A DNA stretch of 64,000 bases from an uncultured bacterium (GTDB taxonomy: Bacteria > Babelota > Babeliae > Babelales > Vermiphilaceae). Made by a program: the position numbers. The stretch lies in the NCBI GenBank assembly GCA_963707655.1, contig OY970172.1, positions 768,001-832,000 of the forward strand. The letters run 5' to 3'. Positions 21,001-24,000 of the stretch are shown one piece after another (positions within the stretch are counted from its first letter, which is position 1; the number at the start of each line of letters is the position of its first letter).

Positions 21001-24000
21001 ACGCACCCTTACCTTATGACGCTCAAGAAAAGAACCCATTGTTCCCTGCTTGTGCGCAGCTCGCAAACGCTTGTCAACATTACAATCTGACACAGAGTGT
21101 ATTTTACCGTCCATCAAGACAAAAAATGATTTTCGATTATAGCCCACCTCTATATTTTTAACAGAACTGGCTGCATTGATTGTTTTTTGCGATTGGATAA
21201 AGCTGACATCCATTTGCGCCTCATGATTATTGTTTTCTGCCGCGCATAATATGAGGGGGAAGGTGAAGAATAATTTTTTAAACATAAACTCTTTCATTGA
21301 GATGCACTTTCCATGCGCATCACCTTTTAAAAACTTTACTTATTGTCAAATATATATTTCTATCTTATATAAATTAATTCACCCCTGTCAACAACAAAGG
21401 CCCTGGTGATCTGGAAACACCGCATACGCCGCTTTCGAATCACCGTAATTTTCCGATACGCTCTTCATAAGTGCCTATGCGTAAATTGACGAGCAATACC
21501 AAATGATTTATTCTTCTCCTCGATTAATAAATATATTGTAAGGAGATTTGCATGAAGAGTTTATATTCTGTTGTACTGTTTTTTAGTCTCATCAATAACA
21601 ACTACGCTCACTCAACATATGACGGCTTGATAGAAAATCTTCATGCTGCCTGCGTTGACACCGTTGATTTCTTATTCACCGACATTCTTGGCTCGTTGCG
21701 CTGTGTAACCGTTCCCCTCCTCGCTGCTGCTGACGCTTTTAAGAACGGTATGGAATTTGATGGCTCATCTATTCCCGGCTATGTATCAATCTATGAAAGC
21801 GATATGCATCTCAAGCCCGATATGAACACATTGCAGATCGTAGACAATAAAGCACATGTCATATGCGATATTTATTGCTCCGCTTGCGATCCTTATGAGG
21901 GGGATCCGCGTTACTTATTGAAAAAACAATTAGAGCGCGCGAAAACATTAGGATATGAATTTTATGTAGGTCCAGAATTAGAATTCTTTTTATTAGATAA
22001 TCAAAACAACGATCCTGTTGATGCAAGCTGTTATTTTGATGCAAGCGACACAACTTCTCTTGACTATCAAAAACGCACATTGATAAATGCATTGGTACGA
22101 AACGAGATTGGTGTTGAAAAATGGCATCACGAAGTCGCCAAAGGCCAACACGAAACAAGCCTTCACTATGCTGACGCATTGGTTATGGCTGACCAAATTG
22201 TGCGCGCAAAACAAGTACTAAAAATGCAAGCGTATGAATTGGGCCTTCGCGCATTGTTCATGCCAAAGCCCTTTTTCGGCATGAACGGCAGTGGCATGCA
22301 TATTCATTTTAGTTTGTATGATAGCGCTTTATGCAAAAACGCTTTTTACGAAAAAGATAACCCACTCTATTTATCAGACACCGCGCACCATTTTATTGCC
22401 GGTGTTTTAAAATATGTGCCCGCAATGAGCGCGATTTGCAATCCTACCGTTAATTCATACAAAAGATTGGTTGCCGGTTATGAGGCGCCGGTCTATGTTT
22501 GTTGGGCGTCAAAAAATAGAAGTGCCTTAGTCAGAATTCCACAAATTGATGCAACGCAAGCATCTGCTGCTCGTGCTGAATTACGTTCGCCCGATGCCAT
22601 GAGCAATCCGTATGCGTTGTTTGCTTTGCTGTTGGCCGCAGGCTTGCAGGGCATAGAAGATGAGCTGGAATTGGCTCCTCCCGTAGAACAAAATTTGTAC
22701 AAACTTTCTTTAGAACAAATAAAAACGAGCGGCATCACTATGTTGCCCGAATCGTTGCAAGATGCGCTGATATGCTTGAGCCAAAATGATTTTGTTAAGC
22801 GCGCATTGAGCGATCGTTTTGTCCAAGAGTTTGTATACATAAAGCAAAAAGAAGTTGAGCAATTTAATCGTACAGTTACTAATTGGGAATGGAAGCAATA
22901 TGCGTCAAAATGACTGTATGATCATTGTTTCCGCGATGTTTCGTATTGACTGAATATCAAGATCTTGACATGTATATAATAGGTTGTTACGATCATCCTC
23001 ATAAATAGTTTTTGCTATTAACAATGTCCCTAAATGAACAATACATCTTTGTATTGTTCACCCCCCTAACCCTTCAGCTTTCATAGTTGGAGGGATTTTT
23101 ATTTCTGGCTGATTGCAGTAATCATCTCTAGATGGCAACTCATTTTATAGTGGTCATGAGTATGAGATTGCAGCGTGAAGTTGTTGCACAGCAACATTGG
23201 CCTGCCACGCAAAGCTTGAAGATAATTTTGAATTTTATTCGCATCTCCCTCTGCTTGCAGAACAAGAGCATCGACTTGATACCAAGTATATTTTTTTGAA
23301 ATTTTATTGTGTGTGCATGACGTAACAACGAGCCCTGCTTTTTGTGCATCTTGCATAATCATTAGCAGAACATTTTTTATGCTCTGCGCAGCATAAGCAG
23401 CATACTCTGTTTGCAATAACGCGAGCGCCTGCTCCGTAGAGGTCGTTAAGTGGTGAATATGCTTAATCTCTTTTATTCTGTTTTGGCAATGCACCATTTC
23501 AGCTTCGTACCTTTGTTGCTGCTGTGTAATCGGTTTATGCAGCAGTAAATACCAACTCATTATGCATGCACTTATTATTGTTAGGCTCAGTAGATAACGT
23601 GTGGCGCGAGAGAGTCCCGCTATGGCACCATAATAACGATTGCCACGAGGAATAAAATATGACATCAAGCTACTCTTCCTTTTTTATGAAGGCTTGTTCA
23701 AACTAAAATTAAAATGTTGATTTTGTCCACTGCATTGGATCAACGGCAGTGTTGTTCACGCGCAATTCCCAATGAAGATGATAGCCCGTTGCATAGCCGG
23801 TTTTTCCTAATGTACCGATAGGGTTCCCTTTGCTCACCTTTTGGCCAACAGTAATATTGGCAAAATCTTCGAGATGATAGAAGAGCGAAAGCACGCCGCA
23901 GCCATGATCAATAACTACCGTGTTTCCGCTAAATGCGTAACGGTCCTTAACCACAACAACCCCGTCTTGCGTTGCCCAAATAACGCTCTTTGGAGCATTA

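Follow-up and report, generated by a model that had tools for sequence, protein, structure and literature searches.

Textbooks describe glutamine synthetase (GS) as an enzyme of the cytoplasm that consumes ATP. In the window, a stretch of 64,000 nucleotides from the genome of an uncultured bacterium of the Dependentiae, the GS gene encodes a protein with an N-terminal sequence resembling an export signal. This raises the question of where the enzyme works. An earlier note on this DNA had called the gene the only GS of the organism, and a single PF00120 match was indeed found in the 1.09-Mb genome. The features of the locus are as follows.

21552-22913, + strand: GS open reading frame, 453 aa, predicted type I-alpha
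21540..21545, + strand: Shine-Dalgarno-like AAGGAG, 6 nt 5' of the ATG, read directly
21552..21614, + strand: putative signal-peptide coding part, residues 1-21 (MKSLYSVVLFFSLINNNYAHS), rule-based, outside the fold
21615..22910, + strand: predicted mature GS of type I-alpha, residues 22-453, assigned from TIGR00653 and PDB matches
21654..21875, + strand: Gln-synt_N beta-grasp domain, residues 35-108, with D70, S72 and S73 as equivalents of the Asp50'-loop
21786..21788, + strand: Ser79 codon in the column of B. subtilis Arg62, placed by alignments to 8ool and 7tfa
21900..22901, + strand: Gln-synt_C catalytic domain, residues 117-450, Pfam profile
22911..22913, + strand: stop codon TGA, read directly

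Anatomy of the leader

The translated open reading frame starts with MKSLYSVVLFFSLINNNYAHS, followed directly by TYDG. An extension of about 20 residues had been proposed for it, which agreed with the alignment to the best-matching solved GS: since residue 2 of 8ool aligned with residue 21 of the query, the protein is longer by about 20 residues. In the profile search, Gln-synt_N began only at residue 35. An AlphaFold2 monomer model had a mean pLDDT of 94, with residues 1-20 at about 50 and the canonical first helix formed by residues 22-32. The model thus places the leader outside the folded domain, before the normal N-terminus of the family.

The leader was judged by home-made rules instead of a trained signal-peptide predictor, and by these rules its features matched those of a Sec signal peptide, i.e., a positive n-region (K2), an h-region of about 7-15 residues (apolar core SVVLFFSLI) and small residues at -3/-1. 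The residues A19-H20-S21 at positions -3 to -1 form a candidate type I signal-peptidase site. Leaders of the same kind are carried by undoubted envelope proteins of the genome (BamA, OmpH, OmpA, ZnuA and TamB). Two other export routes were considered and rejected. For the Tat route, the query has no RR, this pair was present in 2 of 80 orthologues and no TatC was found in the genome, which is rated 88.6% complete. For the lipoprotein route, there is no Cys in the query leader and a lipobox-like motif was detected in 2 of 80 orthologues.

The N-terminus might alternatively be a membrane-association helix or an inefficient signal, or a second start might yield a cytoplasmic form; in each case GS would stay in the cytoplasm and amidate imported glutamate. 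An in-frame TTG at codon 26 offers such a start, but no Shine-Dalgarno sequence precedes it and it was ruled out. The charge asymmetry and core length of the leader, typical of exported proteins such as the envelope proteins named above, also speak against a cytoplasmic enzyme, which we consider very unlikely.

Conservation of the leader in the phylum and its absence outside

GS was present in 47 of the 261 genomes of the phylum. Five of the 47 loci were dropped, one being masked (L043), two cut by contig ends (L029 and L046) and two paralogue-like with 28-29% identity (L047 and L048), which left 42 full-length orthologous loci. The earlier note had ascribed the leader to nearly all Dependentiae orthologues; the result was stronger, as all 42 full-length loci encode it, 41 in frame and one (L025) out of frame, with the leader and its AAGGAG both one frame off. 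The leader of L045 was scored by eye because the rule missed it. A Shine-Dalgarno-like motif (GGAG, GAGG or AGGA) was located 5' of the leader start codon at 35 of the 41 scored loci of relatives, and translation of GS in the relatives is predicted to begin at the leader. Retention of a useless leader at 42 of 42 loci would be costly, which is a further argument against the cytoplasmic alternative.

Among the best 120 database proteins, the leader was detected in 80 with an alignment-anchored rule. This replaced a first rule that had flagged 82 of 120, leaderless proteins included, because it took the first beta-strand for an h-region. The other 40 proteins comprised 37 outgroup proteins, forming one separate clade with a support of 1.0, and P0002, P0025 and P0026. 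The start of P0002 was miscalled, since MKKIYLGIVVSLCTMGFVQA precedes it in frame in the DNA of the source genome (L003). The start of P0026 falls inside the leader of its sister P0027. Midpoint rooting of the GS tree was abandoned, as the root fell inside the leader clade, and the bipartition was tested instead.

The next relatives in other phyla had been described as leaderless, and this held. None of the 37 nearest outgroup proteins had a leader, and 80 GS loci from other phyla, taken from the matches listed, contained no credible one. A lenient rule flagged two of these 80, both representing upstream read-through before an evident start. As a control, the ribosomal/SecY stretch of the bacterium's own genome was scored, and none of its 42 genes was flagged.

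The leader sequence varies among orthologues and its charge and hydrophobic pattern is kept. The apolar core of the 80 leader-bearing proteins had a median length of 13 residues (range 8-18, with at least 18 in one protein), and therefore corresponds to the length of a signal peptide, not of an anchor. The N-flank charge was at least +1 in 78 of the 80 proteins. In 73 of them it exceeded the charge of the C-flank, which means an N-in, C-out orientation.

These data bear on the possibility that the leader is an uncleaved signal anchor that keeps GS attached to the inner membrane from outside, beside the importer. Poor -3/-1 sites in some orthologues, among them the leader-bearing P0102, which its source names Candidatus Chromulinivorax sp. 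and which failed the cleavage-site rule, would be compatible with it, as would the long linkers between leader and enzyme (30-40 extra residues) in L016, L024, P0039 and P0040. On the other hand, the typical core is short for a membrane span, and the query carries A-H-S at -3 to -1. Moreover, from the known architecture of GS, the twelve N-termini of the two-ring dodecamer could not all touch one membrane. An anchored enzyme is very improbable.

Type and active site of the enzyme

PF03951 matched residues 35-108 (E 2.1e-20) and PF00120 residues 117-450 (E 7.1e-114). The TIGR00653 model gave 445.8 bits against an equivalog cut-off of 429.15, and the query scored far below the respective cut-offs of the Type III, GGputSyn and GlnII models. 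Solved GSI-alpha structures were matched in one stretch with E values of about 1e-104 to 1e-98, and GSI-beta structures (2bvc, 1f1h) in two stretches with about 1e-68. Judging from these matches, the query is a type I-alpha GS, of the alpha and not the beta subtype. It shares the two-domain fold and the catalytic residues with B. subtilis GlnA (4lni) and Methanothermococcus thermolithotrophicus GS (8ool), with E values of about 1e-104 to 1e-101.

Fourteen positions (D70, S72, S73, E142, E144, Y161, E194, E201, H250, E311, R323, R341, E343 and R345) did not vary across the 124 ingroup and the 37 outgroup sequences, and H252 was kept in 94% of sequences. We take the invariant set to be the metal, glutamate, ammonium and ATP-site residues of GS, with D70, S73 and Y161 presumably forming the ammonium site and E311 the Glu flap of the GS literature. 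Out of 110 columns conserved at 95% or more in the outgroup, 73 retained a conservation of at least 90% in the ingroup, every checked active-site residue among them. By sequence, GS looks catalytically intact.

The exported enzyme could nevertheless be, in vivo, a gamma-glutamyl ligase for another amine, or a builder or amidator of an envelope polymer. GS relatives use polyamines, ethanolamine or methylamine, a glutamate-methylamine ligase (9qur) was among the PDB matches, and the TIGR00653 score was just 17 bits over the cut-off. Set against this, D70, S73, Y161 and E311, with the roles assumed above, are invariant in the clade, and the best matches, at 1e-104, are true GSI-alpha enzymes. A different ligase therefore has little probability, even though passages of Harth and Horwitz (1999) tie the extracellular GS of M. 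tuberculosis to the poly-L-glutamate/glutamine polymer of the wall, a link that was proposed there (PMC2193054).

Loss of the feedback arginine and the reduced nitrogen network

Arg62 of B. subtilis GS is described as essential for feedback inhibition by glutamine in passages of a published study (PMC10799026). All 37 outgroup sequences had R in the corresponding column. Among the 124 ingroup sequences the fraction with R was 0.06, and S, N and A were the commonest residues; the query has Ser79. Judging from the alignment, the leader clade has lost the arginine on which inhibition by glutamine depends. According to the same passages, the M. thermolithotrophicus enzyme, like the query, has no Arg62 equivalent (PMC10799026).

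Searches of the genome for GDH, GOGAT, Amt and PII found none of them, and in this, as well as in its 21-residue Sec-type leader, the query differs from the known type I-alpha enzymes named above. The lost arginine and the missing PII, GOGAT and Amt would be odd for a housekeeping enzyme kept in the cytoplasm.

Linkage to an amino-acid importer

The genome was claimed to encode a glutamine-type ABC importer, and one importer with an SBP_bac_3 protein, a permease and an ATPase was present. The best PDB match of its binding protein was the reconstructed ancestor AncQR, and it scored below the cut-off in all three of the ArtJ, ArtI and GlnH models. The importer is of the polar-amino-acid, Gln/Arg type, and its substrate may be either glutamine or arginine.

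In the genome under study, GS (789.5 kb) and the importer (215 kb) are not adjacent. In 12 of 36 assessable relatives, representing 7 genera and 5 families, the SBP, permease and ATPase genes were located upstream of GS on the same strand, with a gap of 164-221 nt between the aligned ATPase and GS segments in 7 of the 12; in the remaining 24 no linkage was observed. The presence of the binding protein was not enriched with GS (40 of 47 GS-bearing genomes vs. 157 of 214 others). The linkage fits a loop in which glutamine is made outside and then imported. It would also fit a cytoplasmic enzyme if glutamate were imported and then amidated. The known glutamine users are all cytoplasmic and agree with that alternative as well. 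Of the users previously listed as GatCAB and CTP synthase, GatB and CTP synthase were identified.

Export machinery, leader-bearing proteins and ATP handling

The genome encodes SecY and two type I signal peptidases (Peptidase_S26). The three TLC ATP/ADP translocases reported before were recovered as three TLC open reading frames. In addition, an adenylate kinase paralogue with a leader occurs beside a leaderless adenylate kinase, and a hydrophobic N-terminal stretch was observed at 17 of 19 related adenylate kinase loci, with a start codon located for not all of them.

A lax rule applied to the whole genome flagged 488 of 1011 proteins and was replaced by a stricter one, by which 333 of 1011 (33%) carry leaders, a count that includes false positives, as CTP synthase and a Rossmann protein (Pyr_redox_2) were still flagged. 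The leader-bearing proteins included ankyrin, WD40, C2H2 zinc-finger, Sel1, DnaJ and GNAT proteins. Cofactor-dependent enzymes were also among them: four AAA ATPases, GNATs, a UDP-glucose dehydrogenase, an NAD epimerase, GT2s and a SAM methyltransferase. The ankyrin, WD40, zinc-finger, DnaJ, GNAT and AAA proteins look more sensible in the host cytosol. Leaders on ankyrin, WD40 and zinc-finger proteins therefore suggest that in this organism a leader is frequently a mark of proteins with a probable destination outside the cell. The genome also has two secretins and one T2SS-C-like gene. A WD40 and a GNAT gene are located in the neighbourhood of GS in the window.

17787-19790: leader-bearing WD40 gene
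16560-17027: GNAT gene

The main rival explanation follows from this set, namely that GS is a secreted metabolic effector, which after Sec export would leave the cell via a secretin/T2SS-like system, outer-membrane vesicles or lysis, and in the host cytosol or vacuole would either use host ATP to form glutamine from host glutamate and ammonium to the parasite's benefit, or reduce the level of ammonium or glutamate. It would share its leader type with the ankyrin, WD40, C2H2 zinc-finger, Sel1 and DnaJ proteins and with enzymes that need cytosolic cofactors (AAA, GNAT, UDP-glucose dehydrogenase and others); its neighbours and the secretins with the T2SSC-like protein point the same way, and loss of the feedback arginine would suit a glutamine-rich host cytosol. 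According to passages of Deeg et al. (2019) on the cultured relative Chromulinavorax destructans, 44% of its CDS and 78% of its ankyrin proteins have signal peptides, and many of the signal-peptide proteins are read as secreted effectors; the bacterium is also said to grow in direct contact with the host cytoplasm and to form putative outer-membrane vesicles (PMC6561590). The share of 33% obtained here with a home-made rule compares with these 44%. However, a dodecamer of about 600 kDa would presumably be poor cargo for a secretin, the operon link to an importer with a periplasmic binding protein fits local production at least equally well, and the sequence contains no secretion signal past the Sec leader. 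We regard secretion into the host as rather unlikely, though as the most probable of the rival readings.

A proposed periplasmic glutamine synthetase

That GS crosses the inner membrane is likely. The export signal on the only GS of this intracellular parasite of protists therefore suggests that the enzyme probably works outside the cytoplasm, where it would run on host ATP, glutamate and ammonium. The best reading of the end point, to which we give an even chance, is the production of glutamine in the periplasm for uptake. The unfolded GS precursor would pass through SecYEG, type I signal peptidase would cleave it near the junction of AHS and T, and folding and assembly would take place outside the cytoplasm, with the periplasm as the most likely site. 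There it would form glutamine from host ATP, glutamate and ammonium, which should reach this compartment, since the TLC translocases of the inner membrane import ATP. The output would be free of product feedback because the feedback arginine was lost. Glutamine would be caught by the substrate-binding protein of the ABC importer and, once taken up, would supply the cytoplasmic amidotransferases (GatCAB, CTP synthase), which would have no cytoplasmic GS to rely on.

Two further points stand against periplasmic production: GS could form its dodecamer only once the subunits had passed through Sec, and the gain over plain import of host glutamine is not obvious. The periplasmic reading had been put forward in the earlier note, and much of its basis held, as a genuine leader of Sec type is shared by the whole clade, the enzyme looks catalytically intact, the importer is linked in a third of assessable relatives, and SecY, two signal peptidases and a leader-bearing adenylate kinase paralogue are encoded. 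The periplasm as the end point stood less firmly, given 333 leaders among 1011 proteins, some on proteins that look host-directed, and two secretins. A broader proposal, which we put forward tentatively and with somewhat less confidence than periplasmic glutamine production itself, is that the Dependentiae periplasm is a host-fed, ATP-powered compartment in which exported enzymes draw on host ATP bound for the TLC translocases; a feedback-free GS would cooperate with the importer, and an exported adenylate kinase would rebalance ATP, ADP and AMP near the translocase.

Comparison with known systems

To our knowledge, M. tuberculosis GlnA1 has no signal peptide, and the release route of this GS is disputed. 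In contrast, the export signal of the Dependentiae GS is encoded and conserved. GlnA1 is also a GSI-beta enzyme (2bvc, E 4.5e-68 to the query), whereas the query is assigned to GSI-alpha. It still offers a precedent, as an intracellular pathogen has this GS outside its cells, and passages of the 1999 paper propose that it acts there (PMC2193054).

A closer parallel in targeting is Lig E. Excerpts on this ATP-dependent ligase describe it as periplasm-targeted, with a signal peptide in every member, stoichiometric use of ATP on DNA, activity at nanomolar external ATP and a source of ATP that is an open question. Like Lig E as portrayed there, the Dependentiae GS is a normally cytoplasmic, ATP-requiring enzyme with an N-terminal signal peptide, but unlike Lig E it would consume ATP in bulk for biosynthesis, drawing on the millimolar pool of the host. 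The existence of Lig E means that novelty was overstated where the periplasm had been presented as a space generally regarded as ATP-free.

Plant GS2 belongs to type II, carries a eukaryotic transit peptide and uses ATP made inside the organelle. In plant GS2 and in the query alike, an N-terminal extension targets GS to a compartment other than the site of its synthesis.

In the literature searched, which did not cover all journals, no description of an exported Dependentiae GS was found; only the 1999 paper on M. tuberculosis came up. The word 'glutamine' was absent from the Dependentiae literature found, including the text of Deeg et al. (2019), in which neither GS nor adenylate kinase is discussed as an exported enzyme (PMC6561590). 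New findings are the presence of GS in few genomes of the phylum, the lost feedback arginine, the importer linkage, the negative searches for GDH, GOGAT, Amt, PII and TatC, and the conserved leader-bearing adenylate kinase paralogue.

The clade-wide export signal, together with the dropped feedback and the importer link, therefore points to ATP-dependent biosynthesis outside the bacterial cytoplasm, either in the periplasm of the energy parasite or in the host cell. If GS is periplasmic, the view of an ATP-free periplasm needs revising for the energy-parasite lifestyle; if it acts in the host, an enzyme of central metabolism joins the effector repertoire of intracellular bacteria. An ATP-powered periplasm, if true, would provide the first example of biosynthesis driven by ATP in bulk within this compartment of a bacterium, and would be a step towards an organelle-like division of labour between the parasite envelope and the host cytosol.

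A minor observation concerned cysteines. A disulfide signature in the ingroup was considered and left unused as evidence; no conserved Cys pair was established and the query has Y77. Ingroup sequences had a median of 6 core Cys residues and outgroup sequences a median of 3, with C317 present in 97% vs. 24% and C77 in 53% vs. 0 of the sequences, respectively.

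Glutamine synthetase gene and its product

The glutamine synthetase (GS) gene encodes a complete enzyme preceded by a short N-terminal extension. Its features were as follows:

Window 21540-21545, + strand: AAGGAG, with the ATG six bases downstream
Window 21552-22913, + strand: GS ORF of 453 codons, N-terminus MKSLYSVVLFFSLINNNYAHSTYDG
GS residues 35-108: Pfam match to Gln-synt_N
GS residues 117-450: Pfam match to Gln-synt_C

PF00120 gave a single match in the genome (one 1.09-Mb contig, rated 88.6% complete), in agreement with the earlier note, which had listed one GS only. The protein scored 445.8 bits against the NCBIfam GlnA equivalog (cut-off 429.15), with the remaining GS-like models far under their own cut-offs. 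The top matches among solved structures were type I-alpha enzymes, with E-values of 2.7e-104 for 8ool, the Methanothermococcus thermolithotrophicus GS, and about 1e-101 for B. subtilis-type structures, versus merely about 1e-68 for type I-beta structures. By every defining feature tested, the protein is a member of GSI-alpha. Residue 2 of the 8ool chain was aligned to query residue 21, matching the extension of about 20 residues noted earlier. An AlphaFold2 model, built with 86 aligned homologues as input, had a mean pLDDT of 94 that fell to about 50 over residues 1-20, with the canonical first helix formed by residues 22-32. The domain positions, the 8ool alignment and the model thus mark residues 1-21 as an add-on ahead of a complete GS.

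Conservation of the leader

The 120 best database homologues were anchored on the conserved FTD motif, and an uncharged hydrophobic window was required upstream of the usual N-terminal helix. By this rule, the leader was present in 80 proteins and absent from 40. A total of 37 of the leaderless proteins formed one clade, split from all others with a support of 1.0, whose source names include Magasanikbacteria, Chloroflexi, Dehalococcoidia and Lokiarchaeia. The other three (P0002, P0025 and P0026) were nested within the leader clade. For P0002 the start was miscalled, since the DNA of its source genome carries MKKIYLGIVVSLCTMGFVQA upstream in frame, and the N-terminus of P0026 corresponds to a Met within the leader of its sister P0027.

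To avoid gene-caller bias, 261 genomes of the phylum were surveyed by six-frame search and reading of open frames. Five of 47 GS loci were left out, one being masked (L043), two cut by contig ends (L029, L046) and two only 28-29% identical and not orthologous (L047, L048). An in-frame leader was found in 41 of the remaining 42, including L045, which the rule missed as its N-terminal helix is missing and which was called by eye. The apparently leaderless 42nd locus (L025/L128, genome G122) was rejected as a genuine exception; its neighbouring frame carries AAGGAG followed by MKKVLYITTLMVMLAEHVYA, which makes it a frameshift or an assembly error. Of 41 scored loci, 35 had a GGAG, GAGG or AGGA motif ahead of the codon at which the leader starts (the window's own locus and the truncated L029, taken as a miss, were counted; L025 and L026 were left out). 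As negative controls, a lenient open-frame rule flagged 2 of 80 GS loci from other phyla, both rejected as read-through upstream of an evident start, and no flag fell on any of the 42 genes that make up the ribosomal-protein/SecY stretch in the window's genome. The earlier claim that the leader is shared by orthologues and missing from the next relatives was therefore borne out and extended.

Several variants were seen among the relatives. The GS leader of G121, the sister genome of G122, is lipobox-like and ends in LAC. Some orthologues have a Cys-rich linker between leader and GS domain, e.g., SESCTTSSCDTE and QLCDDCESS (L028, L030 and L031 of f9; L027 and L032 of f14), and 30-40 additional polar residues occupy this position in L016, L024, P0039 and P0040. 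Of the two distant GS-like genes, L048/L151 (genome G015) lacks the N-domain, its frame spanning 362 aa, and has a leader-like start, MKSQIIRTMVLLGISIMQQASA, and L047/L150 (G132) has no leader.

Leader type and probable export

In the 80 leader-bearing database proteins, the apolar core had a median length of 13 residues (range 8-18, with 18 reached in one protein). The N-flank carried a net charge of +1 or more in 78 and was more positive than the 15 residues past the core in 73; RR and a lipobox-like motif each occurred in two. Judged from sequence, such a layout is that of a Sec signal peptide with a predicted type I signal peptidase cut and N-in/C-out orientation. A membrane anchor, a Tat signal and a lipoprotein signal were rejected on core length, charge pattern and the rarity of RR and lipobox, and an uncleaved leader serving as an anchor is accordingly improbable. 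SecY and two Peptidase_S26 genes are encoded in the window's genome, and a search of this 88.6% complete genome for TatC found none. GS is very probably exported across the inner membrane; set against the retention of the leader throughout the orthologous loci, there is little likelihood that GS stays in the cytoplasm behind a non-functional leader.

Catalytic residues and nitrogen metabolism

The 37 outgroup proteins have 110 columns with conservation of at least 95%; in 124 ingroup sequences, 73 of these columns were kept at 90% or more. All residues that could be assigned to the metal, glutamate, ammonium and ATP sites were invariant in the alignment, namely D70, S72, S73, E142, E144, Y161, E194, E201, H250, E311, R323, R341, E343 and R345. 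The B. subtilis Arg62 column behaved differently, with R in 37/37 outgroup proteins and at a fraction of 0.06 in the ingroup, where S, N or A mostly replaces it; structure alignments place Ser79 of the query here. According to Mueller et al. (2024; PMC10799026), the Glu flap is locked onto glutamine, once bound, by this arginine; 20 mM glutamine leaves the M. thermolithotrophicus GS, with Gly at this position, uninhibited, and an archaeal GS with Arg is 97% inhibited. The clade that gained the leader has thus probably also lost product feedback. Another substrate or a role in wall-polymer synthesis, to be weighed against the preserved catalytic residues, has a slight chance.

PII, an ammonium transporter, GOGAT and GDH were looked for in the window's genome and none was found, which places GS outside any assimilation cycle here. 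The glutamine users GatB and CTP synthase are both encoded, as had been claimed. Only 47/261 genomes of the phylum had a GS match (36/189 among good-quality ones; the 47 include two distant paralogues), so GS is dispensable in the phylum.

Linkage with an amino acid importer

SBP_bac_3 coordinates adjoined GS in several genomes, and GS neighbourhoods (±7 kb) were therefore examined in 46 relatives with the binding protein, permease and ATPase of the window's genome (contig 215097-217286) as queries. After two distant paralogue loci and eight loci short of upstream sequence were left out, 36 were assessable. In 12 of these, from seven genera of five families, the importer preceded GS and shared its strand. 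Seven had the order SBP-permease-ATPase-GS with aligned ATPase and GS segments 164-221 nt apart, one had 64 nt between the binding-protein gene and GS, and four had gaps of 0.75 to 6.4 kb. Linkage was absent from the other 24 and from the window's genome. The importer is of the polar-amino-acid (Gln/Arg) group, within which sequence does not tell Gln from Arg. Genomes of the phylum often carry the binding protein (197/261), which, by our count, is not enriched in GS-bearing genomes (40/47 versus 157/214 without GS).

The earlier note had proposed that the exported GS works in the periplasm. GS would be released there, host ATP would cross this space en route to the three TLC ATP/ADP translocases, which were found in the genome as claimed, and the glutamine made would be taken up by the ABC importer. 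Export is likely and the importer linkage speaks for this proposal, which thus has partial support and which we regard as the best reading, with an even chance of being right; against it, the leader attests Sec passage only, and host-type proteins also bear leaders.

Other leader-bearing proteins

A strict leader rule flagged 333 of 1011 ORF-called proteins, 269 of them without a further membrane span, although leader calls by such home-made rules also hit CTP synthase and one Rossmann-fold protein. Of these 269, the 226 with a length of at least 140 aa were scanned with Pfam. Genuine envelope proteins were among them (two BamA, OmpH, OmpA, TamB, ZnuA, a solute-binding protein, amidase_3 and an S41 protease), as were at least six ankyrin, five WD40 and four C2H2 zinc-finger proteins, Sel1, TPR and DnaJ proteins, eight GNATs, four AAA ATPases, a MutS_V protein, a macro domain protein, an adenylate kinase, UDP-glucose dehydrogenase, an NAD epimerase, five GT2s, two NodZ-like proteins and a SAM methyltransferase. 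Many of the non-envelope proteins depend on cofactors or partners of the eukaryotic cytosol. Two lie just upstream of GS:

Window 16560-17027, + strand: leader-bearing GNAT acetyltransferase
Window 17787-19790, + strand: leader-bearing WD40 protein of 667 aa

Nine more leader-bearing ORFs, none with a Pfam match, were located in window 12078-21297. The genome also encodes two secretins and a T2SS-C-like protein. For a cultured relative growing in host cytoplasm, Deeg et al. (2019; PMC6561590) give signal peptides on 44% of CDS and 78% of ankyrin proteins, and many of these proteins were interpreted as secreted effectors. The leader is therefore evidence of Sec passage and not of periplasmic residence. 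That GS leaves the cell and performs the same chemistry in the host is the main rival, which we consider possible but rather unlikely, the importer linkage being at least as compatible with production in the periplasm.

Two adenylate kinase (ADK) genes were found. The housekeeping one (contig 169991-170563) comes after SecY and is leaderless. The other is:

Contig 1023353-1023997, + strand: leader-bearing ADK, start MRFLFVLLICSFINA, with a 15-residue hydrophobic leader running straight into the first strand and P-loop

A six-frame search of the phylum gave two classes of ADK match. The 19 loci close to the leader-bearing paralogue (within L152-L171, 35-60% identical) had a hydrophobic N-terminal stretch in 17 cases, with the start codon located for only part of them; L168 lacks the stretch and L170 carries a large N-terminal fusion. 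None of 10 housekeeping loci examined had a leader. The leader-bearing ADK supports ATP being available wherever these proteins go, and does not indicate the place itself.

Relation to known systems

To our knowledge, the extracellular GS of M. tuberculosis has no leader. It is alike in concept and of beta-type, in contrast to the GSI-alpha enzyme described here (PMC2193054). Lig E, an ATP-dependent ligase bearing a signal peptide, is also alike in concept, and its authors discuss the source of periplasmic ATP; the signal-peptide-rich secretome of Dependentiae (PMC6561590) is a third such parallel. No report of a leader-bearing GS was found in the open-access papers searched, where phrase matches came from a 1999 mycobacterial paper alone and "glutamine" occurred zero times in the Dependentiae papers found. 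The leader-bearing GS belongs to a known enzyme family and has an unusual, testable implication.

Further loci were observed in the same genome. In a glycan-synthesis cluster (contig ~862-880 kb; L093, L094), nearly all enzymes, which are cytoplasmic as a rule and nucleotide-sugar dependent, have an N-terminal leader or anchor; its members are the UDP-glucose dehydrogenase, NAD epimerase, GT2s, two NodZ-like proteins and SAM methyltransferase. The four leader-flagged AAA-family ATPases (contig 473115-475583, 341073-343535, 693490-694734 and 696273-697406), one Cdc48-like with several AAA modules, are apparently further exported ATP-dependent proteins. An ATP-dependent DNA ligase (window 28360-29385, - strand; DNA_ligase_A_M and A_C) has no leader, and a LigD_N phosphoesterase (contig ~1077801-1078508) has one. 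A leader-bearing paralogue pair of about 633 aa (contig 316142-318043 and 1006585-1008489) carries C-terminal Ntox17 and Colicin_D domains, a polymorphic-toxin-like architecture.
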